Shown here one piece after another: positions 12,624 to 57,200 of a stretch of 64,000 nt of DNA. Made by a program: the position numbers and the translations under genes. This DNA comes from Escherichia phage MX01. The stretch lies in the sequence record NC_031934.1; one strand, given 5' to 3'. The stretch's first letter is position 1. The number at the start of each line of letters is the position of its first letter. The notes beneath the pieces were generated by a model. It ran no database searches, had not been told where the DNA came from, and saw only the letters and a list, made by a program, of their open reading frames with translations.

Positions 12624-12707
12624 AACAATTCTCTCGTTGAGTTGGTAAAACCCATCTTAACATAGAATTTTTAACTTGTAAACAGGAATTTTGTACTTTA
12701 ATGCAAA

Positions 12708-24439: not shown

Positions 24440-24496
24440 AATGTTCTCCTCATGTTTGTGTAAGGTAATAGTACCACATCCTTGTGGTGTTGTAAA

Positions 24497-26620
24497 CTAC
24501 ATTTTGAATTTATTTGATAAAGAAGAGATGTCCAAAGATGCAGCAAGGATTTCCATAGCTTCGTTGCTTTCAGAAACGGATTCATTAACCAAGAATTGAC
24601 TGAATCCATCCATCAGGCGAACTTCACCAGTTTCCATCAAATGGTCACCATCGTAAACAGATTCGCTGAGCTCTGAAGGAGGTGTTACGGTAGCTTCCAT
24701 AAGGTATTTGTGAGATACTCTATCATTCATGGCAAAAGCTGCTACTTTATCAACCTTCAACAATAATCCACGCGGAAGGATAATTTCTGCTTCTTCGGCA
24801 TATTCTGTAAGGTCACCAGGAGCGATAACTTTAACTGCTTCAGCACCTCGAATAACCATACCAATTTCAGCAATTCTATCTGCAGGACCTTCAGGTGCAA
24901 TTGGATTACCAAACTCGTCTTCTTCCCATTCTACCTCTTCATCATCGACTTCACCCACATCAGATGAACTACCGCTAGCCAATTTAAACAACTCATCAGC
25001 GGAGGATAAAGAACCTTCACCACCAACAAAAACGGCTTGGTTGTCGAGGGCCATATAATTTTTACCAAATTCGCCAAAGATGTTAGGCTTTAATGAGGCT
25101 GACACAAAGTTCTTAAAGTAAAATGTTTTGTTATCGATATTATGACGCAGAATTTTGTATGGCAAATCCTGACCACGATACAAAATAGTACCCTTAGGAA
25201 GTTTAATACCCTTAGTAAATGCTGAGTCTAAATCCTTAATCAATTTAATAGCCGTTGTATTGTTTTCGGATTCAGGTTTACCTAAAAGGAACAAGTTCAT
25301 AGGAGCATATTCAGCTGCGCAATATTCAATAATAGCATTGCTTTCGTCTTTGGTTAGGCCCTTAGGTTTAATGAGCTCACCTGAATAAGCATATGCATCA
25401 CTAATAGAATCGTTAATTAGTTTATAAACGGCTTCCATAGCGAAAGCAATTCGGGATGCTTTCTCTGAAGGGGAGCCTTTAAAACGGGTACTCAGGTTAT
25501 TAACAATTTTCTTAATAATATCCAGACTATTGGTTGTATTGATTTGCGAAAGGCCACTTAAAAGTCTATCGACTTCTGTATTAAAAAATGCCATATTATT
25601 AGAGTAAATTTCAAACCCTTGTTTATCTCTATTAGCATAATTTAGTTTAAATTTACTATCAGTCATTAAAGCGTGTGTGAGAGCAATAGTGTATCTAAAG
25701 TTGGCAAGGTCCTCGCTCTTAGATTTAAACTGAGAAGCCTGGCGCATTTTGGTAATAGCACCTTTTTTAAAGTTCTGACTAATCTGTTCAATACCTTCGT
25801 TCTCAGGGCCTTCAGCCGTGTGAACCGGTACAGAAGCTTCAAACTCGTTATAAACCTGCAATTCTTTAGGGGACAAAGTTTCAGGCTCAGCAGTAGAATA
25901 CTGCGCCGCCGCTGCCATACGACGCGAAATCTTAGTACGAGTAATGACAGCCTTATCAGTACGTTTCTCTTCAACTTGTGCAATAGATGCCGCTACGGCT
26001 TCGACCTTACTTACGGCCTGGCCGGTTTTCTTAGAAACATACACTTCGCCAACTTTAGACTCAACTTTAGTATAAAGATCGGCATTAATTTCAGGCATAC
26101 CCTTGATATCTTCAATATTAGCACCACGACGTACTAAAAGAACGTAGGTATGTTTTCCGCTGAATTGGAACATGTCGTCAACAACTTTAAACTTACCACC
26201 GGTACGAGCCATAGCCAAGCGAGCTAATACGCGCTGAACGGTAGGACCTTTACCTTTCATTTTCTTAGTAGGGAAACGGAACAAAACCGCGTCCATTTTA
26301 AGTTTGTTTATTTGTTCATATATGGTATCGAAAATGGTGTTCAGTGTACCGAGTGGATCGGTACCCAAACCACCCTTGAGTTCTGCCGGAGCGCCTTTAG
26401 CAGATAAACTCATTAAGATAACATGGACGTACTTATCACCCGGCTTAACCATTTTAATAGCATCGCCTTCAGACGCGTATGAAACCATACGCGCTACTAA
26501 ATTGTCATTACCAGGAGCATGGACCGCAAAAATCTGCGGTACGCCCGAGCCAGGTTTAAGATTTGTTACTGGGTAATTTTTTTTATCGCTTTTATCAAAA
26601 ACTTCGTTTAAATTTTCCAT
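24497..26620 (-). CDS. alt: Alt-like ADP-ribosyltransferase, paralog 1
   Basis: 707 aa; N-terminal 230 aa conserved with the two neighbours and T4 Alt (PQIF, LSAKG, KLKGGLG, TKVESKVGEVY); C-terminal R-S-E signature YRGQ / FVSASL / EAEIILPRG. Confidence 0.85.
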   Translation of the reverse strand: MENLNEVFDKSDKKNYPVTNLKPGSGVPQIFAVHAPGNDNLVARMVSYASEGDAIKMVKPGDKYVHVILMSLSAKGAPAELKGGLGTDPLGTLNTIFDTIYEQINKLKMDAVLFRFPTKKMKGKGPTVQRVLARLAMARTGGKFKVVDDMFQFSGKHTYVLLVRRGANIEDIKGMPEINADLYTKVESKVGEVYVSKKTGQAVSKVEAVAASIAQVEEKRTDKAVITRTKISRRMAAAAQYSTAEPETLSPKELQVYNEFEASVPVHTAEGPENEGIEQISQNFKKGAITKMRQASQFKSKSEDLANFRYTIALTHALMTDSKFKLNYANRDKQGFEIYSNNMAFFNTEVDRLLSGLSQINTTNSLDIIKKIVNNLSTRFKGSPSEKASRIAFAMEAVYKLINDSISDAYAYSGELIKPKGLTKDESNAIIEYCAAEYAPMNLFLLGKPESENNTTAIKLIKDLDSAFTKGIKLPKGTILYRGQDLPYKILRHNIDNKTFYFKNFVSASLKPNIFGEFGKNYMALDNQAVFVGGEGSLSSADELFKLASGSSSDVGEVDDEEVEWEEDEFGNPIAPEGPADRIAEIGMVIRGAEAVKVIAPGDLTEYAEEAEIILPRGLLLKVDKVAAFAMNDRVSHKYLMEATVTPPSELSESVYDGDHLMETGEVRLMDGFSQFLVNESVSESNEAMEILAASLDISSLSNKFKM

Positions 26621-26623
26621 TAT

Positions 26624-28669
26624 TTACCCTTGGATGAATTTTTCTGGGATTTCGTCAAAATTAATACATGAAGCTAAAATAGGCATTATATCCACCTTGG
26701 TCGATTTGACAAATGAATCAAAAGACACAGGGTTGTCGGTCTCTGTTTCTACACCTTGGTAAACAACCAATTCGCCTGTTTCCATCAATGCATCGCCATC
26801 ATAGATAACCGCATTTTCTGCTAGTTGGTCTGTGGTCTGGATATCTGCTTCCAATAATTTGGTGTTGTAGTTTCCTTTATATGAGGCATCAGTAATTTTA
26901 GTAATCTTAACTGTAGTTCCACGTGGAAGAATAACCTCTTGTTCTGTTGGAGAACCTGACAATTCACCAGGCATAATTACGTTAATAGAGTCTGCACCAG
27001 AAATTTTCCAGCCGATGTTCATCATTGTATTTTCGGAACTCGTCAGCATACTTGGAAGAACAATTTCATTATCGCCTTGGAAAGATGTCCCAGCGCGATA
27101 GTCTTGATGTACTGCTGCCATTGCGACGTTTGATACCCAGCCGCCAAAGATAATTGGCTTAAGGGACGTTGATACATAGTTCCTGAAATAAAACAATTTT
27201 GAGTGTTTGATTTTATCAAAAGTGTTAACATTTAAATATTGCCCACGCCAAAGTGTAATATCAGGTGGCAATTTATGGCCAATTTCAAATGCCGCATCCA
27301 TATCGTTAATTACTTCAATTACACGCTGGCTATCAATGAATTCTGCATCCTCTTCATAATAATTACCCAACAAATAATTATTAACATCGGTATAATATTG
27401 GCCACAATAAGAAGAAATAGCCTCACGCTGCTCATACTCAAATCGATTATCGCTATAACCGGCTGTAAAATGCATAAGACTTTCTGATGCTTCATTAGCA
27501 AAGTCGGTAACAGCAGCACTTATACGTTGAGCATACTCTTGTTCCCAAAGCTCTGCTGCATATTCTGACGCATCCATATTAGGAGGGGCCTCATTCACTT
27601 TTCTTTCGATAAATGCAGCTTTGCGAAGGTTAAGAATCTCTGCACATGATTCGGCAAAAATCTGCATCTGCTTCATACTGCCAACAGGAGCACGTTTAAG
27701 TTCACGATGCATACGGTTAAAAATTGGGTCAGAGTCTTCGACTCGAATTTCTTCTTTCCAAACACCATTTGCTCGCATAGCCGTATCTGCCGCGCGCATA
27801 CGGTCCATAGTATTCGTTTCAGAAGGTCGAACAAAAATTTCTAGTTCTTCATAATCATCGATAAGTTCTGCCGTAGCCGGTCGACTAAACTTAGCAGCTT
27901 CTGCATCAATTTCGTCCCAACCTTCCGGAACTTCATCTCGAGGAGAATACTGGGCTGCGGCCACAGCACGCCTAGAAATCTTGGTAGTAGTAATAACAGC
28001 CTTATCCGTACGTTTTTCTTCGACTGCCGCTATACTAGCAGATAGTGCTTCTATTTTGGTTACTGATTGGCCGGTTTTCTTAGAAACATAAACCTCACCA
28101 ACTTTAGACTCAACCTTAGTGTAAAGGTCTGCATCAATTTCAGGCATACCTTTTATGTCCTCAATATTAGCTTGTTTACGAACCAGTAAAACGTATGTAT
28201 GTTTGCCTGTAAATTGATACATATCATCGACAACTTTAAACTTGCCGCCAGTACGAGCCATCGCCAAACGTGCCAATACACGTTGAACAGTAGGACCCTT
28301 ACCTTTCATTTTCTTGGTAGGGAAGCGGAAAAGAACTGCATCCATTTTAAGTTTATTTACCTGTTCATATACCGTATCGAAAATGGTATTCAATGTACCA
28401 AATGGGTCAGAACCTAACCCACCTTTCAACTCGGCTGGGGTACCCTTAGCAGACAAACTCATTAGAATAACGTGGACATATTTGTCGCCTGGCTTAACCA
28501 TTTTAATAGCGTCTCCTTGAGACGCATAAGATACCATACGAGCAACCAAGTTATCATTACCTGGTGCTTGGATAGAGAAAATCTGTGGAATACCGGAACC
28601 TGGTTTAAGATTTATTACTGGATAGTTTTTAGCGGAATCACTATCAAAAACTTCGTTTAAATTTTCCAT
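26624..28669 (-). CDS. Alt-like ADP-ribosyltransferase, paralog 2
   Basis: 681 aa; same conserved N-terminal domain; R-S-E signature WRGQ / YVSTSL / EQEVILPRG; divergent central region. Confidence 0.85.
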   Translation of the reverse strand: MENLNEVFDSDSAKNYPVINLKPGSGIPQIFSIQAPGNDNLVARMVSYASQGDAIKMVKPGDKYVHVILMSLSAKGTPAELKGGLGSDPFGTLNTIFDTVYEQVNKLKMDAVLFRFPTKKMKGKGPTVQRVLARLAMARTGGKFKVVDDMYQFTGKHTYVLLVRKQANIEDIKGMPEIDADLYTKVESKVGEVYVSKKTGQSVTKIEALSASIAAVEEKRTDKAVITTTKISRRAVAAAQYSPRDEVPEGWDEIDAEAAKFSRPATAELIDDYEELEIFVRPSETNTMDRMRAADTAMRANGVWKEEIRVEDSDPIFNRMHRELKRAPVGSMKQMQIFAESCAEILNLRKAAFIERKVNEAPPNMDASEYAAELWEQEYAQRISAAVTDFANEASESLMHFTAGYSDNRFEYEQREAISSYCGQYYTDVNNYLLGNYYEEDAEFIDSQRVIEVINDMDAAFEIGHKLPPDITLWRGQYLNVNTFDKIKHSKLFYFRNYVSTSLKPIIFGGWVSNVAMAAVHQDYRAGTSFQGDNEIVLPSMLTSSENTMMNIGWKISGADSINVIMPGELSGSPTEQEVILPRGTTVKITKITDASYKGNYNTKLLEADIQTTDQLAENAVIYDGDALMETGELVVYQGVETETDNPVSFDSFVKSTKVDIMPILASCINFDEIPEKFIQG

Positions 28670-28672
28670 TAT

Positions 28673-30757
28673 TTACCCTTGGATGAATTTTTCTGGGATG
28701 TCATAGAGGTCTATGCATGAAGCCAAAAGAGACAGCACATCAACCCGTGTAGATTTAACAAATGAATCAAAAGATACAGGGCTTTCGGAAGTATCGAAAT
28801 CATCTTGATATACGACCAACTCGCCGGTTTCCATTAGTACGTCACCATCATACACCACAGATTCTTGAAGCTCATCTGTTGTCATAACTTCGGCTTGGAT
28901 GAGTTTTGTATTATTAGATGTTGTTCCATCATTATTAGAAGCATCTGTTATTTTATTAACTTTGACCATTAATCCACGTGGTAGAATAACTTCAGCTTCA
29001 GTTGCTATTCCGAGATTTCCTGGATATACAACATTAACTTTATGAGCCCCATCAATCGCCCATCCTATTTGAACTTTAACGTATTCAGGATTTTCTTTAT
29101 ATGCTCTTATTTCATTAGGATTGATAGTTATTCCTTCTTCATTTTTATCGACTGTCAATTCATTGCGAACTTCAGGTTCTAAAAGACCAATACCTGCGTG
29201 GGTAACACCAAAACGTCCGAAAATGATAGGAGTTAATGAAGTAGATACAAAATTTCTAAAATAAAACACTTTATTTTTAACTAGTGCTTCGTATATAGGA
29301 GCAGTCATACTCTGTGCACGATAAACTGTGATGCCTTCTGGTATACGGTCGCCATTTTCAAAAGCAGAATCCAAATTATTAACTGCAGATTCGATATCTT
29401 TTTCACTCATAATCTCATAGTTATGAGGATTGTAACGACCTAAAAGAAGGTTATTTATATCGCCGTATCCAGAGCCACAATATTCTCTGATGCCACGCTT
29501 TTGCGATGGGGTATATTTAGAACCCTCACGAGCAATAGTAATATCAACCATTGAACCACCACCCACACCAGCAAAACTATATACGCGTTTTTTAATGAAT
29601 TTGGTCTTGGCTGCTTTCCACTTGGACTCGGTCAATTCATTCCAGAGGTCATCAGGTTGTCCTTTACGAGTTTTGTTATGCGTAGCCAACCACTCGCCTT
29701 TGTATTCTTCGAAAACGGTATTAATAGCAGAGGCATATTTTTCTAGAGCTTTAACAGATGTCAAAGGTTCGTTTTTGATGGCTGATAGGATTTTCTCTTT
29801 AATTTTCTCTTTGATTTCACCTATACCGTGAAGAGGAAACATTTTATAATCGTAATGCAATTCTTCAGCAGTACCTTCAGCTACTATATTAGCAACCTTA
29901 TTTTTAGCCGCAGGAGAATTGTTATTAGTAACCATTTCCTGGGCCTCAGGGATTAATGGAACTGTTGCCGGTTTATTAAAATCCGCTGCAGTAGCTTCAT
30001 ATTTCTTAAACAATTCACTTTCATTACGATAAGATTCCAATGATTGGCTTGCTGCAATGGCGCGCCTAGAAATCTTAGTCTTGGTTATAACCATTTTATC
30101 AGTGCGACGTTCTTCAACCTTAGCAATACTGCCGGCAATAGCAGTTTCTTTAGTAACCTGCACACCTTCTTTTTTGGAAATATAAACTTCACCGACATCA
30201 GAATCTACCTTAGTATACAATTCAGCATTAATTCCAGGCATACCTTTGATATCTTCGATATCAGCTTGTTTACGGACTACCAGGATGTAAGTATGTTTAC
30301 CGGTAAATTGGTACATAGCCGGAACCACTTTAAAACGTCCACCGGTTTTCTGTGTTACCAAACGTTGGATAATACGTTGAACGATAGGGCCTTGACCTTT
30401 CATTTTCTTGGTAGGAAAACGGAACATCACGGCATCCATACGAAGCTTTTTAACTTGGTCATAAACCACATCAAAAATAGTATTAATCGCATCTACAGGA
30501 GTAGGGCCAAGGCCACCTTTAAGTTCGGCTGGAGTACCTTTAGCTGAAAGGCTCATAAGGATAACGTGGGCATATTTATCACCCATTTTAACTTGTTTAA
30601 TAGCATCACCTTCAGAAGCGTAGGATACCATACGAGCAACTAATTGGGACTCTGCATCGCCAATCTTCCAAATCTGGGGTACTTTAAGTTTTGGGTTCAA
30701 GTTTACTGTAGGCAGAGTGCCTTCGGACTCAAACACTTCATTTAATTGTTCGGTCAT
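28673..30757 (-). CDS. Alt-like ADP-ribosyltransferase, paralog 3
   Basis: 694 aa; same conserved N-terminal domain; R-S-E signature YRAQ / FVSTSL / EAEVILPRG; C-terminal tail shared with paralog 2. Confidence 0.85.
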   Translation of the reverse strand: MTEQLNEVFESEGTLPTVNLNPKLKVPQIWKIGDAESQLVARMVSYASEGDAIKQVKMGDKYAHVILMSLSAKGTPAELKGGLGPTPVDAINTIFDVVYDQVKKLRMDAVMFRFPTKKMKGQGPIVQRIIQRLVTQKTGGRFKVVPAMYQFTGKHTYILVVRKQADIEDIKGMPGINAELYTKVDSDVGEVYISKKEGVQVTKETAIAGSIAKVEERRTDKMVITKTKISRRAIAASQSLESYRNESELFKKYEATAADFNKPATVPLIPEAQEMVTNNNSPAAKNKVANIVAEGTAEELHYDYKMFPLHGIGEIKEKIKEKILSAIKNEPLTSVKALEKYASAINTVFEEYKGEWLATHNKTRKGQPDDLWNELTESKWKAAKTKFIKKRVYSFAGVGGGSMVDITIAREGSKYTPSQKRGIREYCGSGYGDINNLLLGRYNPHNYEIMSEKDIESAVNNLDSAFENGDRIPEGITVYRAQSMTAPIYEALVKNKVFYFRNFVSTSLTPIIFGRFGVTHAGIGLLEPEVRNELTVDKNEEGITINPNEIRAYKENPEYVKVQIGWAIDGAHKVNVVYPGNLGIATEAEVILPRGLMVKVNKITDASNNDGTTSNNTKLIQAEVMTTDELQESVVYDGDVLMETGELVVYQDDFDTSESPVSFDSFVKSTRVDVLSLLASCIDLYDIPEKFIQG

Positions 30758-34627: not shown

Positions 34628-34993
34628 TTAGATATCGAATTCGTTCAGAACTACATCAAAGATTGCTTCCAGGTGTTCAGGTTTAGCTCGGTTGCTCAGG
34701 ATGTGACGAATCCAAGTTTTAACCAGAAGCTTACGATTAACACCGTTCCAGCAAGGATGGGTACCTAAATCACGTTGACGGAAATCATCATCTAAAGCGA
34801 TTTTAAAAGTAGAACCTTCCATTGTGATTGAAACCGTAATACCATTTTCAAAGCGCATATAAACGTAGTTAGGAGTCATGCACTGTTCGATTTCGCACAC
34901 CGCGCCGTTGTTGTGTTTCCACAGGCAAATAACTTCAGAAGAACCAGCGATACCGTTAGAAACATATTTACGTTCGAAGTTGATGTAGTTCAT
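34628..34993 (-). CDS. Hypothetical protein with duplicated promoter/leader cassette
   Basis: 121 aa; 39-nt 5' leader identical to that of ORF 35067..35399. Confidence 0.55.
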   Translation of the reverse strand: MNYINFERKYVSNGIAGSSEVICLWKHNNGAVCEIEQCMTPNYVYMRFENGITVSITMEGSTFKIALDDDFRQRDLGTHPCWNGVNRKLLVKTWIRHILSNRAKPEHLEAIFDVVLNEFDI

Positions 34994-35054
34994 TTTATTC
35001 TCCAGTTTGTTTTCGTATTATTTGGTACAGGTCTATAATAACACAACCTGTACC
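34991..35054 (-). promoter_or_regulatory. Early promoter/leader cassette copy A with inverted repeat GGTACAGG/CCTGTACC flanking -10 (PeSL-like)
   Basis: 39-nt leader identical to copy B; 8-bp inverted repeat arms at 35024-35031 and 35047-35054. Confidence 0.6.
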
Positions 35055-35066
35055 AAAGTAAAACAT

Positions 35067-35399
35067 TTATTTCACAACATTCCAATTTTTCATATCAAGT
35101 TTACCAACTTTTTTCATCTGAGCAATCAGACGTTCAGCGCGTGTACGGGCATTAACATAATAGAATTCACCATTTTTGTTTTCTTCAATACGACCAGTAA
35201 TTACAGTTTTCAGTTCATAAATCCAACCTGTAAAGAAGTTGTGAAGCTCGATGGTGAACGTGAAATCAGTACCCGTACCTTCAGTTGTTTCAACTTCGAT
35301 GATATCACCTTCAACTGCAGTCAGGACCCACATGGTTTCTTGATATCCGCCGTTGAAACATTTAGCTTTAACAGATGCATTCAGATTTACAGTTTTCAT
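35067..35399 (-). CDS. Hypothetical protein with duplicated promoter/leader cassette
   Basis: 110 aa; identical leader GTACCAAATAATACGAAAACAAACTGGAGAATAAAATG. Confidence 0.55.
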   Translation of the reverse strand: MKTVNLNASVKAKCFNGGYQETMWVLTAVEGDIIEVETTEGTGTDFTFTIELHNFFTGWIYELKTVITGRIEENKNGEFYYVNARTRAERLIAQMKKVGKLDMKNWNVVK

Positions 35400-35470
35400 T
35401 TTATTCTCCAGTTTGTTTTCGTATTATTTGGTACATGTCTATAGTATCATGCCTACCGGAGATGTACACC
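35397..35470 (-). promoter_or_regulatory. Early promoter/leader cassette copy B
   Basis: Identical 39-nt leader CATTTTATTCTCCAGTTTGTTTTCGTATTATTTGGTACA (plus strand) and TACTATAGAC -10. Confidence 0.6.
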
Positions 35471-35495
35471 ATTTTTTAAAGATTTAGAAACAAAA

Positions 35496-35517
35496 ATGGG
35501 ACTCCGAAGAGTCCCAT
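35496..35517 (-). terminator. Terminator hairpin ATGGGACTC-CGAA-GAGTCCCAT
   Basis: 9-bp stem, tetraloop, T-tract on the minus strand; downstream of the small basic ORF. Confidence 0.7.
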
Positions 35518-37799: not shown

Positions 37800-38029
37800 T
37801 CTATGAACACTCGCTGCGCTTCGACCAGACCATCAGAACCAAGTTTCAACTGGGTAATCTGGCCGCCATTTTTAGGATTAACGATAACCAATACCGCACG
37901 TGGTGATTCCTGAATTACTCGCAGAGTTGCGTCAGGAAAACGTACAGAAACCTTATTAATCAGGGCCTGAGCAAATTCTTTAACTTTAACTTGGAACTGC
38001 TCTACAGTAATAGGTTGTTCGCTCAGCAT
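37796..38029 (-). CDS. Hypothetical protein (cd.x slot)
   Basis: 77-aa ORF overlapping cd start. Confidence 0.45.
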   Translation of the reverse strand: MLSEQPITVEQFQVKVKEFAQALINKVSVRFPDATLRVIQESPRAVLVIVNPKNGGQITQLKLGSDGLVEAQRVFIE

Positions 38030-38583
38030 TAGATGCTCTCCAACTTAAGTTGTTTGGTAGTGGTAGCTTGGGTAATGTCGCCTTTAACAATATAACACAC
38101 TTGTTGGAACGACTTAGTCAAAAGCTCTTCAGCCTGACGATCGGCTTGTTCCTTTGTGTTATGGCGAGAATGAACTTCAATCTTACCATTTTTAACAATA
38201 AGCACTTTCCAATCAGCCGGAGTTTTAATAGGTTTGATTTCAGGGTTCTGGAAAACTAACTGCACTTCTTTAGGGTCTACCACTTCAATAAAGTATTCGA
38301 ATTCATGGCTAAAAAAGCCCGCTGAATTAAAAAGAACACTATTTGCATCGTCAGGATTACCTGTGATTTTGCTCAGGTCGATAAACATCATCTCGTCATA
38401 TACACGAATTCGGCTTACACGTTCATGACCATTATGATAATCAATTTCAACTTCAAACGGATTCATACCCACATACTTAGCAAAAGCTGTATTGAGGCCA
38501 TAAGCACCGTTATTAGTGAATTTGTTTTTAGTGTATTCACCAACGAACTTGTAAAACTTACGCTCTTCAAAGAACTGGCTCAT
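38029..38583 (-). CDS. Hypothetical protein (start set at internal ATG with GAGGAA RBS)
   Basis: 184 aa; promoter embedded in 9-bp inverted repeat immediately upstream. Confidence 0.5.
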   Translation of the reverse strand: MSQFFEERKFYKFVGEYTKNKFTNNGAYGLNTAFAKYVGMNPFEVEIDYHNGHERVSRIRVYDEMMFIDLSKITGNPDDANSVLFNSAGFFSHEFEYFIEVVDPKEVQLVFQNPEIKPIKTPADWKVLIVKNGKIEVHSRHNTKEQADRQAEELLTKSFQQVCYIVKGDITQATTTKQLKLESI

Positions 38584-38604
38584 TTCGATTTCCTCATTTG
38601 TTTC

Positions 38605-38632
38605 GGTAGGACTACTATACCACAGTCCTACC
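38605..38632 (-). promoter_or_regulatory. Early promoter embedded in 9-bp inverted repeat GGTAGGACT/AGTCCTACC (PeSL-like)
   Basis: Minus-strand GTTTAC-N18-TATAGT with perfect 9-bp arms flanking the -10. Confidence 0.55.
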
Positions 38633-38645
38633 ATAGTGTAAACAC

Positions 38646-38924
38646 TTAAATTGCTTCGACAACTACCGTTTGTTTCTGGAAATCCATTTTGCATGAAATA
38701 GCCAAAATGTGGTTATCAATTTTAAATGGAACGATTGCAAATGCTGCACCGGGCGTGAGTTGAACAGTGATTGCATCAACTGCATCCGGGAACATGATTT
38801 CCAGAATAGCAGACAAACGACCGTGCACTTTTAGTTCAGTCGACACGTCGACGCTTTCGTATAGATAATCAGATACAATCTGACTAAAAACTACTTTAAC
38901 AATTTCAGAATAAGTAGGGAACAT
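38646..38924 (-). CDS. Hypothetical protein
   Basis: 92-aa ORF. Confidence 0.45.
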   Translation of the reverse strand: MFPTYSEIVKVVFSQIVSDYLYESVDVSTELKVHGRLSAILEIMFPDAVDAITVQLTPGAAFAIVPFKIDNHILAISCKMDFQKQTVVVEAI

Positions 38925-40544: not shown

Positions 40545-41059
40545 ACACCAAGTTCCTTATAAAGTTCTTCACGGCAAGTTTTAAGGGTTTTACCCGATTC
40601 GTAAGCAACACTTTCAGGAACATCGCCAAGGGTTACTGCGGATTGCATTTGACCGTGACGTTTAGCCGCGTATTCAAAACTTTTCACTAGCTCACGAATA
40701 CGTTCTTTTTCATTATATTCTTCAATGAATTCAGGGTATTCCCAAACCGGACGCATCATACGATACCACTGTTGGATGGTGATATAATTACTTCCATCCA
40801 AATTAATAATCTGCGAAGGCTCAATAGACCCTGGAGCATAAAAAGTTACCTGTCTTACTACATCAATACCGTCCACAATAGCCCAAGCAAAATCGAAAGT
40901 TGCCTTCTTTTCAATTGGCGTGCTTGCACAGGACCCTAGCTTAAGGAGCTTTTGTAATGCAGGAGATTTGACACCTGAAATGTATTCAGGCTTAGCCACA
41001 AAACTGTTATCACGTAAAGTCATAATAATTTCCTCAATTTTTATAATCCGTAGGAGCAT
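40541..41059 (-). CDS. Hypothetical protein (pseT.x slot)
   Basis: 172-aa ORF; true start may be internal. Confidence 0.5.
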
Positions 41060-41190
41060 TATACTCCGCTCCCAAGAGTTTGTAAACTACTTTCCAAAAA
41101 TACCATTTATACACATGCTAAGCACGATTCCAAAACAAAAGCATGTAAAGCCAAATAGAATGACATCCGACCCATCGATACAAGACTCAA

Positions 41191-42319: not shown

Positions 42320-42327
42320 TTTGTTTT

Positions 42328-42370
42328 CTCCTCATTAGTTGGTAAGTCTATACTAACACGTCATGAGGAG
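42328..42370 (-). promoter_or_regulatory. Early promoter for alc-like gene with 8-bp inverted repeat CTCCTCAT/ATGAGGAG; downstream arm contains the RBS
   Basis: Minus-strand GTTTAC ... TAGTAT; inverted repeat arms at 42328-42335 and 42363-42370. Confidence 0.55.
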
Positions 42371-42377
42371 ATGTAAA

Positions 42378-43526
42378 CTACTCTACCACAATTTCTTTCA
42401 AATATTTTTCAGGGATTTGGGCCTTATGATTTTTCAAGAACACAGAGTTAATCTGGTCCATGACCGTATCATAATTAATACCGCCTACGTACGCCTGCAT
42501 AAGAATAGAGAACAACCCTGGGAAGTCCTTAAGGATTAATTGACCTGTAACGGCATAGTCTTTACGGTCACGTCCCTTGAGTTGGGAATATGCTGCTTCC
42601 AACAAAGCCAATGATTGTTCTAGGTAATCTAAATGGATACGTTCGAAGGCATCGATTTTCTCGATAGCAAACGAATCCGTACTGAACAGACCACGAAGGT
42701 CATCAGTTCCGCCAGCCACTACAACTTCAAACAAACGTTCGTTATTGTTAATGGAATCTTTGGTATGATGCAGTGCACTGTACCATGCAGTTTTGAGTTT
42801 AAAGAACGTACCATCTTTAAGTACAAAGATGAAACCTTCAATACCCTCTTGTTTACGGATGTTTTCTACGAAATCACCCTCAGAGAGGTCATAGCTTTCA
42901 ACCAAATGCTTACGCAGGGCGCCATCTTTAAACAATTCAGCATACGGAATATATTCACCCGTTTCATTATTACGAACGTTTAACAGGATGAGGTTTGTTT
43001 CTTGGTAAGCCAACACGATACGGTTGGTAGGTGCAACATATTCAAGGTTGCAGGTATACCCGGCTTTGGTGATTTCTTCTAGACGTGCGGCAAAAGCCTC
43101 GTTCTCAGGGAGACGAAGGAAACGTAAAGAATCATGCACCATTGATGAATGGATAGAGCCTTTAGATTTAACAGAAAGATACTGACGGTCCATGAATGTA
43201 GAAATCAGAGAACCATCTTCCTTAGCCATTACGAGGTCGATATTTTCCGGCGACAAATCTAGACCGATAGTCATAGGGTTTTCGTCAAGGTTAAAGAACT
43301 TTTGCATAGGACGAGCAGCAATACGTACTGGACCTTTCTCGTCCATTTCAAACATAATGCCTCGACACTCTAGTGCGCCGTCTTCCAACCAATCACTGTA
43401 CGATGCATAGTTATAACTAAAGATGCGATAGTTGACTCCTAGCGCACTCTGAAAGTCTTTAAAGAAGAACTTAGATTTAGTCGAGTTTTTAACCAGGGCC
43501 ATTAAGTTATCATATAATTCAATCAT
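42378..43526 (-). CDS. rnlA: RNA ligase 1
   Basis: 382 aa; YRIFSYNYASYSDWLEDGALECRGIMFEMD matches T4 Rnl1. Confidence 0.95.
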   Translation of the reverse strand: MIELYDNLMALVKNSTKSKFFFKDFQSALGVNYRIFSYNYASYSDWLEDGALECRGIMFEMDEKGPVRIAARPMQKFFNLDENPMTIGLDLSPENIDLVMAKEDGSLISTFMDRQYLSVKSKGSIHSSMVHDSLRFLRLPENEAFAARLEEITKAGYTCNLEYVAPTNRIVLAYQETNLILLNVRNNETGEYIPYAELFKDGALRKHLVESYDLSEGDFVENIRKQEGIEGFIFVLKDGTFFKLKTAWYSALHHTKDSINNNERLFEVVVAGGTDDLRGLFSTDSFAIEKIDAFERIHLDYLEQSLALLEAAYSQLKGRDRKDYAVTGQLILKDFPGLFSILMQAYVGGINYDTVMDQINSVFLKNHKAQIPEKYLKEIVVE

Positions 43527-47458: not shown

Positions 47459-47586
47459 AATTTCCTCAATATGTTAGGTTCTACAATTATTCTATCATAG
47501 AACCTGTTAAGCATGGACTGATATTTATAGAATGAAATTCAGTCCGACCATAATAACCAAAAACAGAGTACAGATTATTTGAATTT

Positions 47587-49279: not shown

Positions 49280-49320
49280 TCCTTAGTTGATAAGGCTATA
49301 GTATCACTACCATAGCCTGG
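49280..49320 (-). promoter_or_regulatory. Early promoter cassette (GTTTAC-N18-TACTAT) with inverted repeat AGGCTAT/ATAGCCT
   Basis: Arms at 49293-49299 and 49312-49318 flank the -10. Confidence 0.55.
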
Positions 49321-49327
49321 TGTAAAC

Positions 49328-49573
49328 TTATTTTTGAATTAAGCCCATATAAAATTTAGCGTCTTCCGGGTGCATACCGTCACAATACTCGTAAGCCATA
49401 AAGCGGGTAAGGTCTTCAAGAGGACCTTGGACTTCAATTTGCATACTACAGAATTGAGTATCTTTAATATGGGTCATAACTAAAGAAGGATAACGATTAC
49501 GGATAACTTCGTAAGTGTATTCAAAATCAACGATATCAATATTAACCTTAGCCATTTTATTTTCCTCACTCAT
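49328..49573 (-). CDS. Hypothetical protein (frd.x slot)
   Basis: 81 aa; early promoter cassette upstream. Confidence 0.5.
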
Positions 49574-49574
49574 T

Positions 49575-49620
49575 AGTTGATAGGTCTATAGTATCATGTT
49601 TAAAGGCGTTGTAAACATTT
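49575..49620 (-). promoter_or_regulatory. Early promoter cassette, near-identical to copy at 50290-50335
   Basis: Shared about 60-nt sequence TTAGTTGATAGGTCTATAGTATCATGTTTAAAGG..TTGTAAAC (plus strand). Confidence 0.55.
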
Positions 49621-50346: not shown

Positions 50347-50366
50347 GGGAAGACCGAAGTCTTCCC
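50347..50366 (-). terminator. Terminator hairpin downstream of gene 32 (GGGAAGAC-CGAA-GTCTTCCC)
   Basis: 8-bp stem with tetraloop, followed by T5 on the minus strand. Confidence 0.8.
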
Positions 50367-53237: not shown

Positions 53238-54185
53238 TTAATAAAAATCAGCTACTGTAGCGGTTAGTTTAGACAAACCAGATTTAACGAAATAAGGATA
53301 AACTTTAGATTTCGAAGGTTTGTTATACGTATTATATCTTTCAGTAATTAAAGCAACAATATCATCTGGAATAAAGTCCATATCAATTAAGATTTGGTTT
53401 TCACAGAAACGTTCATATTGTTCTTCAGTAAGAAGTGTTTTAATTATATCATGGTCGTAATAATTAAGAGCAATTGCTTCAAGTTCCTTGGCACGAGTGC
53501 TAGGAGTACGTTCGCCTTCAACCATCGTCAACCAGTAATCACCACGAACTTTAATACTCGCGACGTTATCCTTGCGGTCGCCTTTAACAACCTTAGTTAC
53601 ACAATCCAATAATGAATCGCCAGATTTTGTTTTGACGAATTTTTTCTGCATTGGAGACCATTGTTTTACCCCAGGGAATTTATGGAGTTGGGTAAAGTCA
53701 CCATCCGAAGAACCGATCATAACAGGATGGCCTAAAGTTGTAAGGATACGGGTTAAAACAGCAATATGGTCGTCAGCTTCGATTGTATCGATATTCATAA
53801 CAATATAAGGCATGTTTTGTTCCAGTTCATCAACAATAATATGCATTGCTGTGAATAAACCTTCCCAATCAAATGGTGATTCGTCACGTGCCTTAGCACG
53901 GTTTTTCTTATAATAAGGTGAATAGCGACGACGCCAATAACCTGATTTAGAGTTATCAACACAAATAACCAGTTGGTTGTAACCTTGTTTACGGAAGTCT
54001 TTAATGTTTTTCTTAATTGAATTCAACACGAGGTGTCGAAGCATTGCTGTAGTTACTTTAGGAAATCCAGCATTCTCACCAAACTCTTGGAAAGCTGCAG
54101 CCATAATGATTTGGCTGAAATCTAGGAGTAAAAATCCATCTTTTTGTTGGTCTTCTTCAGGAAGTAAAAAATCTAAATCGTTCAT
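53238..54185 (-). CDS. rnh: RNase H (5'-3' exonuclease / flap endonuclease)
   Basis: 315 aa; CIDNSKSGYWRR, EADDHIAVL, SSDGDFTQLHK motifs as in T4 RNase H. Confidence 0.95.
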   Translation of the reverse strand: MNDLDFLLPEEDQQKDGFLLLDFSQIIMAAAFQEFGENAGFPKVTTAMLRHLVLNSIKKNIKDFRKQGYNQLVICVDNSKSGYWRRRYSPYYKKNRAKARDESPFDWEGLFTAMHIIVDELEQNMPYIVMNIDTIEADDHIAVLTRILTTLGHPVMIGSSDGDFTQLHKFPGVKQWSPMQKKFVKTKSGDSLLDCVTKVVKGDRKDNVASIKVRGDYWLTMVEGERTPSTRAKELEAIALNYYDHDIIKTLLTEEQYERFCENQILIDMDFIPDDIVALITERYNTYNKPSKSKVYPYFVKSGLSKLTATVADFY

Positions 54186-54252
54186 ATGAACCTCTGTTCA
54201 AGTAGTTGAGAGGTCCATTATATCATGGGTTTTAAGGAAGTAAACATCTTGC

Positions 54253-54292: not shown

Positions 54293-57200
54293 ATGGCCGA
54301 TATTTTAAAACCTGCCTTCCGTGCTACATCCGGACTCGATGCTGCAGGCGAGAAAGTTATCAATGTTGCCAAAGCCGATTACAATGTATTAGACGACGGC
54401 GTCAACGTTGAATTCTTTATAGATGAGAACACCATCCAGGCGTACGACGAGACGCGTGGATATAAGAAAGGGTTTGCAGTAATCCATGACCAACGTATCT
54501 GGGTTGCTCAGCGTGATATCGATGCTCCGGCAGGAACCTTTACACCAGGTTATTGGACAGCAACTCGTACCGACCCTAAGTGGATTACCGTAGCGTCTCC
54601 TACACGCCAACTGGCTTCCGGTGAATATATTGCGGTGGATTCCGCTGCTAGCTTTACTACATTTACCCTGCCTCCTAACCCTACAGATGGCGATACCGTT
54701 GTAATTAAAGATATTGGTGGACGTGTCGGTTATAATGAAATCAAGGTCCAATCTAGTTCTGCACCTGGTGCCGGTAACCAGAAAATTGTTCGTTTTGGTA
54801 ATCAGTTCTCTGAAACCCTGATAACCAAACCATTTTCTTATAACATGCTTATCTTTGCTAACCGTCTTTGGCATTTCTGGGAAGCAGGTAACGAAGAACG
54901 TGGTATCCGTGTAGAACCTAACACCGCTCAGTTCCAATCACAAGCCGGTGATAACGTTTTACGTCGTTATACTTCAGGTGCAGTAATTAAATTTACTCTT
55001 CCTAAGTATGCAAACCAGGGTGATATGATTAAAACCGTTGATATTGATGGTTTAGGAAGTAAGTTCCACTTAATCGTCGAAACATTTGATGCTTCGTCTT
55101 CATTAGGTAAGCTTGGTCAGCATAGCATGGAATTCCGTACCTCCGGTGATGGATTCTTCGTTTATAACTCTAACGAAAAATTATGGTATGTTTGGGACGG
55201 CGACCGTCAAACTCGTTTACGCGTAATTCGTGACGATGTTGAGCTCTTGGCTAATGAAAGTGTCATTGTTTTTGGTCCTAATAATACAACGCCGCAGACG
55301 ATTAATATCACATTACCTACAGGTGTAGCCCAGGGTGATGTAGTTAAGATTGCTCTGAACTATCTCCGTAAAGCTCAGACGGTAAATATTAAGGCTGCTG
55401 TAGGAGATAAAATTGCTTCATCTGTCCAGCTGCTTCAATTCCCTAAACGTTCGGAATATCCGCCAGAAACCGAATGGGTATTGAATGATGTACTGACCTT
55501 TAATGGTAATATAAGTTATACTCCGGTTATTGAACTGAGTTATATCGAAGACACCACTATAGGTGGCAAATATTGGGTTGTTGCTCAGAACGTTCCTACT
55601 ATAGAACGTGTAGATTCTAAAGATGATTTAACTCGTGCTCGTTTAGGTGTTATTGCCCTTGCGTCCCAGACTCAAGCAAACGTTGACCACGAAAATAATC
55701 CTGAGAAAGAACTTGCAATTACTCCACAGACTTTAGCTAATCGTGTAGCGACTGAATCTCGTCGTGGTATTGCTCGTATTGCTACTACTGCTCAGGTGAA
55801 CCAGGACACAACCTTCGCATTCCAGGACGATTTGATTATTTCTCCTAAGAAATTAAACGAACGTACTGCAACCGAAACTCGTCGTGGTGTTGCTGAAATT
55901 GCTACGCAAGTTGAAACTAACACGGGTACAGATGATACTACAATCATCACTCCTAAGAAGCTACAAGCACGCCAGGGTTCGGAAAGTCTTTCAGGTATTG
56001 TAACATATACCTCTACTGTAGGAACCACTCCTGCGACTGCTAGAGACACTGTAGGTACTAACGTTTATAATAAGAACGTTGGCAATTTGGTTATTTCTCC
56101 TAAAGCTCTCGACCAGTATAAAGCTACCCAAGTTCAACAGGGTACAGTATATCTTTCTAACCAATCTGAAGTTAACGCAGGTCAAACTGCAAGTGGATTT
56201 GCCAACAGTGCTGTTTCTCCGGAAACATTACATGCTCGTGTGGCTCTTGATACTCGTACAGGGTTAATTGAAATTGCTACGCAAGCAGAGACTGATACTG
56301 GAACAGATTATACTCGTGCGGTAACGCCTAAAACGTTAAATGATAGGAAAGCTACGGAAGGATTGACTGGTATTGCTAGAATTGCAACACAGGTAGAATT
56401 TGATGCTGGTACGTTAGATAATGTTATTTCAACTCCGTTGAAAGTTAAAACACGTTTTAATGATACTGCTAGAACTTCTGTCTCAGCAGCCAGTGGTTTG
56501 GTTGAATCAGGAACCTTATGGAACCATTATACACTAGATATTAGAGAAGCAAATGAGACACAACGTGGTACTGCTCGCCTGGCGACCCAGACCGAAGTCA
56601 ACGTTGGTACCGATGATAAAACTATCATCACTCCTTTGAAATTGCATTCTAAAAAATCTACTGAAAGTTCTGAAGGTATTATTCGTGTTGCAACGAATAC
56701 CGAAACAACCGCAGGAACTTCTAAAGTTCTGGCTGTAAGCCCTTCTGGTTTAAAATATGTAGTACAGACCGAAACCACTTGGGAAGCTACTGCCCTTCGT
56801 CGCGGATTTGTTAAACTAACCGAAGGTGCTTTAACCTATTCAGGAAATAAAGTTACTGGTTCTGGTGTTAAATTTAACTCAGGTACAGGCCTTTACGAGA
56901 ACGACGATACTGTTCTGAACGCAGCTAACTACCCTAAAACAGGTTATGCTGTTTCATCTTACGAGATGAATAAAACTTTACAGAACTTTTTACCTATAAA
57001 TGCTACGGCAGTGAACTCCGAGAAATTGGATGGCCTAGATTCACTTCAGTTCATTCGTAGAGACGTCGACCAAACGGTTAATGGTTCTTTAACGTTGACA
57101 AAACAATTGAACCTGGCAGCTCCTCTGGTGTCTTCTAGTACGGCTAATATTACCGGCAACACTATTTTAGGTTCTCTAGAAGTAACTGGAAATTCTACTT

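Follow-up and report, generated by a model that had tools for sequence, protein, structure and literature searches.

What is an inverted repeat doing when it is wrapped around the -10 element of a phage early promoter? The question is raised by positions 38605-38632 of a 64,000-nt stretch of Escherichia phage MX01 (NC_031934.1), referred to here as the window, where GGTAGGACT (38605-38613) and AGTCCTACC (38624-38632), read on the plus strand, form a perfect 9-bp inverted repeat around the 10-nt spacer ACTATACCAC. A sequence-only reading had described this repeat and the minus-strand TATAGT of a GTTTAC-type promoter within its spacer, and both sequence and coordinates are exact. The answer matters for understanding how phage early regions, with their tightly spaced genes, keep the transcription of neighbours separate.

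Judged by the 93-97% identity around the inverted repeat to Dhakavirus genomes such as WG01, IME08, Bp7, QL01 and JS98, the window is Dhakavirus, from a JS98/WG01-like T4-type coliphage. The gene order taken from the WG01 and JS98 annotations (alt - 30 - 30.x - rIII - 31 - cd - cd.x - pseT - alc - rnlA - denA - nrdBA - td - frd - 32 - 59 - 33 - dsbA - rnh) identifies it as the early/middle gene block of such a phage, with all genes from alt to rnh on the minus strand. Two repeat arrays of a different kind lie in the same window: at 24497-30757 a tandem of three paralogous, alt-like genes for RNA polymerase ADP-ribosyltransferases, recurring every 2049-2094 bp (against two copies in JS98 and SP18 and a single full one in T4), and four diverged 68-nt coding repeats at 55718-56388 within the gene for the long tail fibre proximal subunit (gene 34).

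The gap between cd.3 (38646-38924, minus strand; DUF7355) and the next gene measures 62 nt and holds a promoter as well as a hairpin. On the minus strand it reads TAA gt GTTTAC actat GGTAGGACT gtggTATAGT AGTCCTACC gaaacaaat GAGGAA atcgaa ATG. The cd.3 stop codon (TAA, 38646-38648) forms the 5' edge of this cassette and is followed by the -35 hexamer of a T4-type early promoter (GTTTAC, 38638-38643), by the 5' arm GGTAGGACT (38624-38632) between -35 and -10, by the loop GTGGTATAGT (38614-38623) carrying the extended -10 TG and the hexamer TATAGT (38614-38619), and by the 3' arm AGTCCTACC (38605-38613); the Shine-Dalgarno sequence (SD) GAGGAA (38590-38595) and the ATG (38581-38583) of the downstream gene form the 3' edge, the SD lying outside the hairpin. 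The promoter geometry is GTTTAC(38643-38638)-N18-TATAGT(38619-38614), which a promoter scan reads as TTTACA-N17-TATAGT with a TG extension, and the predicted transcription start would fall inside the 3' arm, about 7 nt past the -10. The stem has 9 perfect base pairs, or 10 with one G:U, around a loop of 8-10 nt; it begins about 20 nt after the cd.3 stop codon, and a 51-nt segment of the cassette has a minimum free energy (MFE) of -17 kcal/mol (z -3.0). There is no T-run after the hairpin at 38605-38632, its tail GAAACAAAT being A-rich, and it does not qualify as an intrinsic terminator; nor does any Rfam family match at gathering score in the whole window.

The gene that follows, a homologue of JS98 orf212 (38029-38583, minus strand; phrog_5804), matches no Pfam family over 38032-38583. 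Its N-terminus shows a weak match to goF, an mRNA metabolism modulator (phrog_2980, E 8e-6). The gene in this position varies among relatives: T4, T2 and Mosigvirus have cd.2 there, Dhakavirus and Gaprivervirus an orf212 homologue, and some Tequatrovirus a distant homologue.

Similar arrangements had been reported at 35024-35054, 42328-42370 and 49293-49318; they are real, and each is larger than first described, with 12-bp arms at 35021-35057, 9-bp arms at 42327-42371 and 11 bp, as RNA, at 49293-49318. All sister cassettes lie on the minus strand. The 30.7 cassette (35021-35063) has the -35 TTTTAC and carries the arms TTTGGTACAGGT/ACCTGTACCAAA (35021-35057) around the -10 TATTAT. In the frd.1 cassette (49293-49327) the hairpin AGGCTATGGTA/TACTATAGCCT (49293-49318) includes one G:U, and its 3' arm contains the -10 TACTAT. 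The alc cassette (42327-42378) places its 5' arm TCTCCTCAT between -35 and -10, and its 3' arm ATGAGGAGA is the SD of alc, which would therefore be hidden in read-through RNA only; the earlier proposal that the ribosome-binding site is sequestered here is thus upheld, and T4 keeps the pairing with a different sequence. A cassette at 41052-41087 combines GTTTAC N18 TATAAT with the arms GGGAGC/GCTCCT (6 bp, one G:U) around the -10, and a JS98 paralogue upstream of 55.2 has GGGACC/GGTCCC. The 30.8 cassette (35394-35517) begins with a UUCG terminator and T-run (35496-35517), followed by the promoter, whose spacer contains CTCCGG (35456-35461), complementary to the SD region CTGGAG (35406-35411). 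The alt.-3 cassette (24474-24497) has a short hairpin, CCACA/TGTGG, in the -35/-10 spacer.

The -10 hexamer thus sits in the loop at 38605-38632, 35021-35057 and 41052-41073 and inside the stem at frd.1, loop lengths range from 4 to 27 nt, and the arms differ from site to site (GGTAGGACT, TTTGGTACAGGT, AGGCTATGGTA, GGGAGC, TCTCCTCAT). The hairpins of the sister cassettes, too, are followed by no T-run. Two further loci in the window have hairpins at promoters. Upstream of td (47476-47545, minus strand) two promoter-nested hairpins stand next to each other with no early promoter involved: the late promoter TATAAATA is in the loop of GGACTGA/TCAGTCC (47515-47545), and a MotA-type middle promoter (TGCTT box and TAGAAT) has its -10 inside AGGTTCTATGAT/ATTGTAGAACCT (47476-47505; z -4.5), resembling the published 'PmSL'. 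At the rnh promoter (54185-54245, minus strand) the hairpin GGACCTCTC...GAGGTTC lies downstream of the -10 and covers the rnh SD; it is therefore present in the promoter's own transcript, and the T4 arrangement is similar.

A single 9-bp repeat is not beyond chance. Perfect 9-bp repeats with loops of 3-30 nt number 15 in the window versus 7.7 +/- 2.9 in 60 dinucleotide shuffles, one of which reached 15. Placement on promoters together with conservation, by comparison, is beyond chance, and the view that the recurrence is functional finds its backing in this association with early promoters. Exact matches to GTTTAC-N15-19-TATANT number 3 in the window versus 0.43 expected. As the exact pattern gave these three sites, the promoter family was listed by looser, hand-checked criteria; the sample comprises 12 T4-type early cassettes from the minus strand of the window and 14 from JS98 1-50 kb, 26 altogether, and includes the direct-repeat families D5-D7 and D14.

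Folding of these promoters in silico, which had been suggested as a check, gave z values of -3.0, -5.4, -4.3 and -3.4 for 38605-38632, 35021-35057, 42327-42371 and 49293-49318, respectively. Among the early-promoter 50-mers of the window (n=12), three fall in the lowest 1.3% of the window MFE distribution and a fourth at 4.8%, and the 26 early cassettes have a mean z of -2.4 versus dinucleotide shuffles (Wilcoxon p 7e-6). Strong folding depends on transcriptional context. Cassettes exposed to co-directional upstream transcription without a canonical terminator (n=19) have a mean MFE of -14.1, with z <= -2.5 in 11 of them, versus a mean MFE of -9.2 and z <= -2.5 in 0/7 of the terminator-preceded or divergent cassettes (Fisher p 0.01; Mann-Whitney p 0.003 on MFE); the classes were assigned after the data had been seen, which makes this result supportive rather than decisive. 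A hairpin is lacking at two exposed promoters, window 49573-49616 and JS98 srd.

Of the relevant sites, a terminator scan flags the canonical UUCG terminators at 35517-35496 and 50366-50347 only. Canonical GC-rich hairpins with UUCG tetraloops occur at 35496-35517 and 50347-50366, both followed by a T-run, and near 12700, 30790 and 34610, where they were spotted by eye. Three UUCG hairpins lie directly upstream of early promoters, and those promoters are without a strong nested hairpin.

If the hairpins matter as paired structures, relatives should be informative, and arm covariation had been named beforehand as a check. A protein-anchored retrieval from IMG/VR returned 6, 13 and 13 loci only, and diversity was taken from GenBank phage records. 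The T4 ortholog of the cd.3-cassette promoter is the annotated Pe133295, between cd.3 and cd.2 (NC_000866 / MT984581), which reads GTTTAC tttac GGTAGAG ttgtgatattatag CTCTACC aaaacaaatGAGGAAaacaaaATG; the Watson-Crick part of its stem GGTAGAG/CTCTACC is 7 bp around a 14-nt loop, and G:U pairs lengthen it. T4 records (133300-133318) annotate this 14-nt loop as 'inverted complement of previously reported sequence'. That the loop had flipped naturally in T4 was considered and rejected: of 427 matching phage records, the old fragment X03007.1 alone has the loop inverted, apparently an artefact that arose when the inverted repeat was cloned or sequenced.

The 28 nt that the hairpin occupies can be aligned gap-free over Dhakavirus, Tequatrovirus, Mosigvirus, Gaprivervirus and one Klebsiella phage. 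In 11 orthologous promoters downstream of cd.3, scored over an 11-pair stem, 85% of cells pair versus 31-59% with the partner slid. When Dhakavirus is compared with T4/Mosigvirus, one pair changes GC<->AU and another AU<->GC; a third goes CG/UG/UA, and double changes occur in 10 cells, a number reached by 1/500 shuffles. Within Dhakavirus the arms are invariant and the 5 nt between -35 and arm vary at 4 positions. Not every relative keeps the stem: in Gaprivervirus its place is taken by a 5-bp hairpin, CACCA/TGGTG, in the spacer, the stems of IME341 and IME281 (both Dhakavirus) and of the Klebsiella phage are degenerate, and in IME341/IME281 the promoter core of the cd.3 cassette is replaced.

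Other loci behave in a comparable manner. The frd.1 promoter has 10-13-bp stems overlapping the -10 in four genera, with clearly different arms (AGGCTATGGTA, AGGGTAGTAGTG, GATAGGGTTAT, ATGGGGCTAT); their register shifts by one between genera, so that a single structure string is inadequate and per-sequence stems were used. The core arms of the 30.7 promoter, GGTACAGG/CCTGTACC, are invariant in four genera, including T4, Mosigvirus and Gaprivervirus, and its leader diverges. The arm/SD pairing is AGTCC.TC/GAGGACT in T4 versus TCTCCTC/GAGGAGA in the window at alc, and TTCCTTTG/CAAAGGAG in T4 versus CTCCGG/CTGGAG in the window at 30.8. Pairing potential is thus conserved at homologous sites and covaries, so that the outcome named in the sequence-only reading as refuting it, an absence of such conservation in related genomes, is not what is seen. 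T4 also has a near-identical anti-SD cassette of about 50 nt (GTTTACaagtccctcgtgttgtgttatagtagtcttact.acataacatgagga) before both alt.-3 and alc, 13 kb apart (L057 7039-7072 and 20281-20346), the sort of dispersed repeat through which shuffling has been proposed to occur.

At which level the pairing acts can be approached from the position of the arms and from strand asymmetry. The predicted +1 of each embedded promoter is inside or after the 3' arm and the 5' arm lies upstream of it, so that the hairpin would form in read-through transcripts only, in agreement with the sequence-only reading, which had the hairpins folding in transcripts that arrive from upstream. Wherever a cd.3 or frd.1 ortholog has a stem, folding favours the sense over the antisense strand by 2-9 kcal/mol, because the 5'-arm nucleotides that face the T's of the -10 are A in some orthologs and G in others. 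Strand-symmetric scoring of mismatched positions in the same orthologs gave 25 G:T and 10 A:C, the latter mostly from weak, probably spurious stems. The asymmetry holds for the cd.3 and frd.1 orthologs only and over all exposed cassettes is weak and not significant (Wilcoxon p 0.09). Overall, compensatory changes at one locus across genera, anti-SD arms that follow the SD, and the restriction of strong folding to promoters not already shielded from read-through by a canonical terminator or a divergent gene lend modest support to selection on pairing in sense-strand read-through RNA; the stem-loops appear to be more than recombination linkers.

The element at 38605-38632 is best explained as a PeSL (promoter-early stem-loop), a class of cassettes described in RB49/phi1 (Arbiol et al. 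2010, PMC2839356). Such a compact intergenic module consists of an upstream stop codon, a strong early promoter for host sigma70 (GTTTAC...TAnnnT) and a nested stem-loop, followed by the SD and ATG with which the next gene is translated. RNA from the cassette's own promoter would start without the 5' arm and have an open leader, and RNA from upstream promoters could fold. In the latter the hairpin would serve as an insulator that attenuates, terminates or protects the 3' end of the upstream message, and in variants of the alc and 30.8 type it would hide the SD instead, with the outcome that each small early gene is expressed chiefly from its own promoter. As DNA, the conserved cassette may also supply short homologies for gene swaps between related phages. 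That 38605-38632 is such an element, whose hairpin insulates or gates the downstream gene in read-through RNA and which doubles as a recombination linker, is probable; as to the action of the hairpin in read-through RNA taken by itself, we lean towards it with some reserve. The dominant RNA-level effect would be attenuation, 3'-end protection or translational gating. No T-run follows the hairpins, and efficient intrinsic termination is thus not expected from sequence alone; a literature search found no transcript-end datasets for MX01, other Dhakavirus or T4.

The strongest of the competing explanations, still an unlikely one, holds that the hairpin acts chiefly as a barrier in mRNA processing or at the 3' end rather than as a terminator: it would protect the cd.3 message from 3' exonucleases, and an endonucleolytic cut in the A-rich leader would cost the read-through copy of the downstream gene. 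A stem without a T-run followed by an A-rich single-stranded leader suits this role, as does a hairpin beginning about 20 nt past the cd.3 stop, and T4 early mRNAs are known from the literature to be cut by RegB, RNase E and RNase G. The restriction of strong folding to promoters without a canonical upstream terminator fits termination and a 3'-end role alike. Against this, one PeSL stem-loop of RB49/phi1 cut lacZ read-through in a transcriptional fusion about as strongly as rrnB T1 (PMC2839356), and the anti-SD variants are left unexplained.

It is improbable that selection acts at the DNA level only, with the cassette as a protein-bound or extruded recombination signal or hot spot and RNA folding incidental, even though recombination has left its traces here. 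The 30.7 and 30.8 cassettes share a 55-nt direct repeat, 95% identical (34989-35043 and 35395-35449, 406 bp apart), which comprises the 3' arm, leader, SD and ATG and flanks gene 30.8 (35067-35399); this pair of repeats would be a substrate for mini-circles of the kind reported between neighbouring PeSLs in RB49/phi1 (PMC2839356). IME341 and IME08 have a different, non-homologous 30.8 allele between 35063 and 35360, and the edge of their homology with the window falls exactly at 35062/63, where the 30.7 cassette has its -35. In vB_EcoM_005 a partial second cassette, made up of the -10 and downstream part, is fused upstream of the cd.3 cassette. The recombinogenic role suggested in the sequence-only reading fits the PeSL literature and these breakpoints in IME341/IME08 and vB_EcoM_005, and the authors of the PeSL study speculate that the stem-loop could be a target for a recombination protein. 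Indels near ~37810, ~38930 and ~39336 were considered as PeSL-bounded and rejected, being gene insertions or a middle promoter. Breakpoints, partial cassettes and the direct repeats around gene 30.8 all favour a role in recombination, but the recombining homology is the whole cassette, with the arms its most variable part between sites. Furthermore, the sense-strand stems tolerate G:T and rarely A:C, a bias not expected of a symmetric DNA structure; changes in the SD are matched in the anti-SD arms, and folding depends on transcriptional context.

Two further DNA-level explanations have a slim chance each. The first, which had been raised from sequence, is that of an operator, double-stranded DNA to which a dimeric regulator, of the phage or of its host, would bind to silence the early promoter; it can call on the perfect dyad symmetry centred on the -10 and on a T4 early-promoter shut-off whose mechanism is described in the literature as not fully understood. 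The arms, however, are unrelated between sites, which makes a shared operator or common DNA-binding protein unlikely, loops range from 4 to 27 nt, and at one locus arm changes between genera, compensatory or of G:U type, preserve pairing and not a recognition sequence; the proposal is not borne out. The second, no better placed, is that cruciform extrusion presents the -10 single-stranded and speeds promoter opening, as the position of the -10 hexamer in the loop at 38605-38632, 35021-35057 and 41052-41073 would allow. At frd.1, however, the -10 lies within the stem, and in T4 the 7-bp Watson-Crick stem is too short and its 14-nt loop too open, short stems with large loops being unsuited to cruciform extrusion; in addition, the G:T positions are A:C mismatches in the hairpin of the other strand, and divergent promoters, which would benefit equally, do without the repeat. 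The least probable explanation, a chance palindrome with no function, can point to the ~8 perfect repeats of at least 9 bp expected per 64 kb of shuffled sequence; strongly against it stand their repeated placement on promoter -10 elements, their conservation across genera with compensatory changes, and the invariant Dhakavirus arms beside a 5-nt stretch that varies at 4 positions.

Insulation or gating by a hairpin in read-through RNA might also be generalized. Promoter-nested hairpins could form an RNA-level rule of T4-type phages, 'expressed from its own promoter only', which we put forward as a tentative possibility. Under such a rule the stem would be placed to exist only in read-through RNA, would be kept by compensatory and G:U changes, would be dispensed with where a canonical terminator or a divergent arrangement blocks read-through, and would hide the SD in a subset (alc, 30.8, motB.2, 55.6 and nrdC.8). 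If true, the gating known from late-promoter genes e, soc, 49 and I-TevI would extend to early promoters, and to middle and late ones as upstream of td.

The cd.3 cassette is an element of a kind already described, and the promoter of its T4 ortholog has long been annotated. By sequence features alone the cassette very probably belongs to the PeSL class: promoter spacing, the nested stem-loop, the bounds set by stop codon and by SD and start, repetition in the genome and the link with indels and replacements are all present. PeSLs also have an AT-rich tract upstream of the -35; in MX01 the 15 nt at this place, cgaagcaatttaagt, belong to the 3' end of cd.3 and are no more than moderately AT-rich. 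PeSL promoters are very strong in RB49/phi1, and their stem-loops fall into five positional subclasses, the commonest overlapping the -10 or lying between -35 and -10; the same study mentions PeSL-like sequences in JS98 and AT-richer analogues at T4 early promoters in T-even phages (PMC2839356). Comeau et al. 2014 (PMC4122927) extended PeSLs to PST/T4 and nt-1/KVP40, with middle-promoter versions too, and gave the PST/T4 consensus TTTACW-N17-TAYWAT, which the MX01 promoter fits. MX01 shares with the PeSLs the order of stop codon, -35/-10, nested stem-loop, SD and ATG, the common positional subclasses, the repetition in gaps before small genes of unknown function, and gene replacement and indels between close relatives. 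The stems differ, being G(n)-loop-C(n) in RB49/phi1 and mixed-sequence and AT-richer in MX01, and the PST/T4 stem-loops are drawn just upstream of the promoter, whereas those of MX01 and its T4 orthologs are nested in it. The functional tests of PeSLs come from RB49/phi1, a different genus with G/C-rich stems, whereas the MX01 elements are known from sequence. What is added here is comparative support for selection on pairing in sense-strand read-through RNA, and for its restriction to promoters at which neither a canonical terminator nor a divergent gene already stops read-through.

A close counterpart is T4 Pe133295, a positional ortholog that shares with MX01 the GTTTAC, the 28-nt extent of the hairpin and the leader AAACAAATGAGGAAA; it differs in inner pairs through compensatory changes (GA/TC versus AG/CT) and in its downstream gene, cd.2 rather than the orf212 homologue. 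In the T4 genes e, soc, 49 and I-TevI, a promoter within an SD-hiding hairpin gates translation (reviewed in PMC3014915). The MX01 alc (42327-42378) and 30.8 cassettes resemble these genes in having the 5' strand of the helix ahead of the point where the proximal promoter starts its RNA, which would leave only the proximal transcript open to ribosomes; the T4 promoters, however, are late and those of alc and 30.8 early, and the T4 hairpins include the SD, whereas that at 38605-38632 does not. Finally, the cd.3 hairpin is, like the intrinsic terminators at 35496-35517 and 50347-50366, a stable hairpin directly after a gene; unlike them it has no T-run, a less G+C-rich stem and a loop of 8-10 nt, and it overlaps a promoter, but its dependence on context suggests that the roles of the two overlap.
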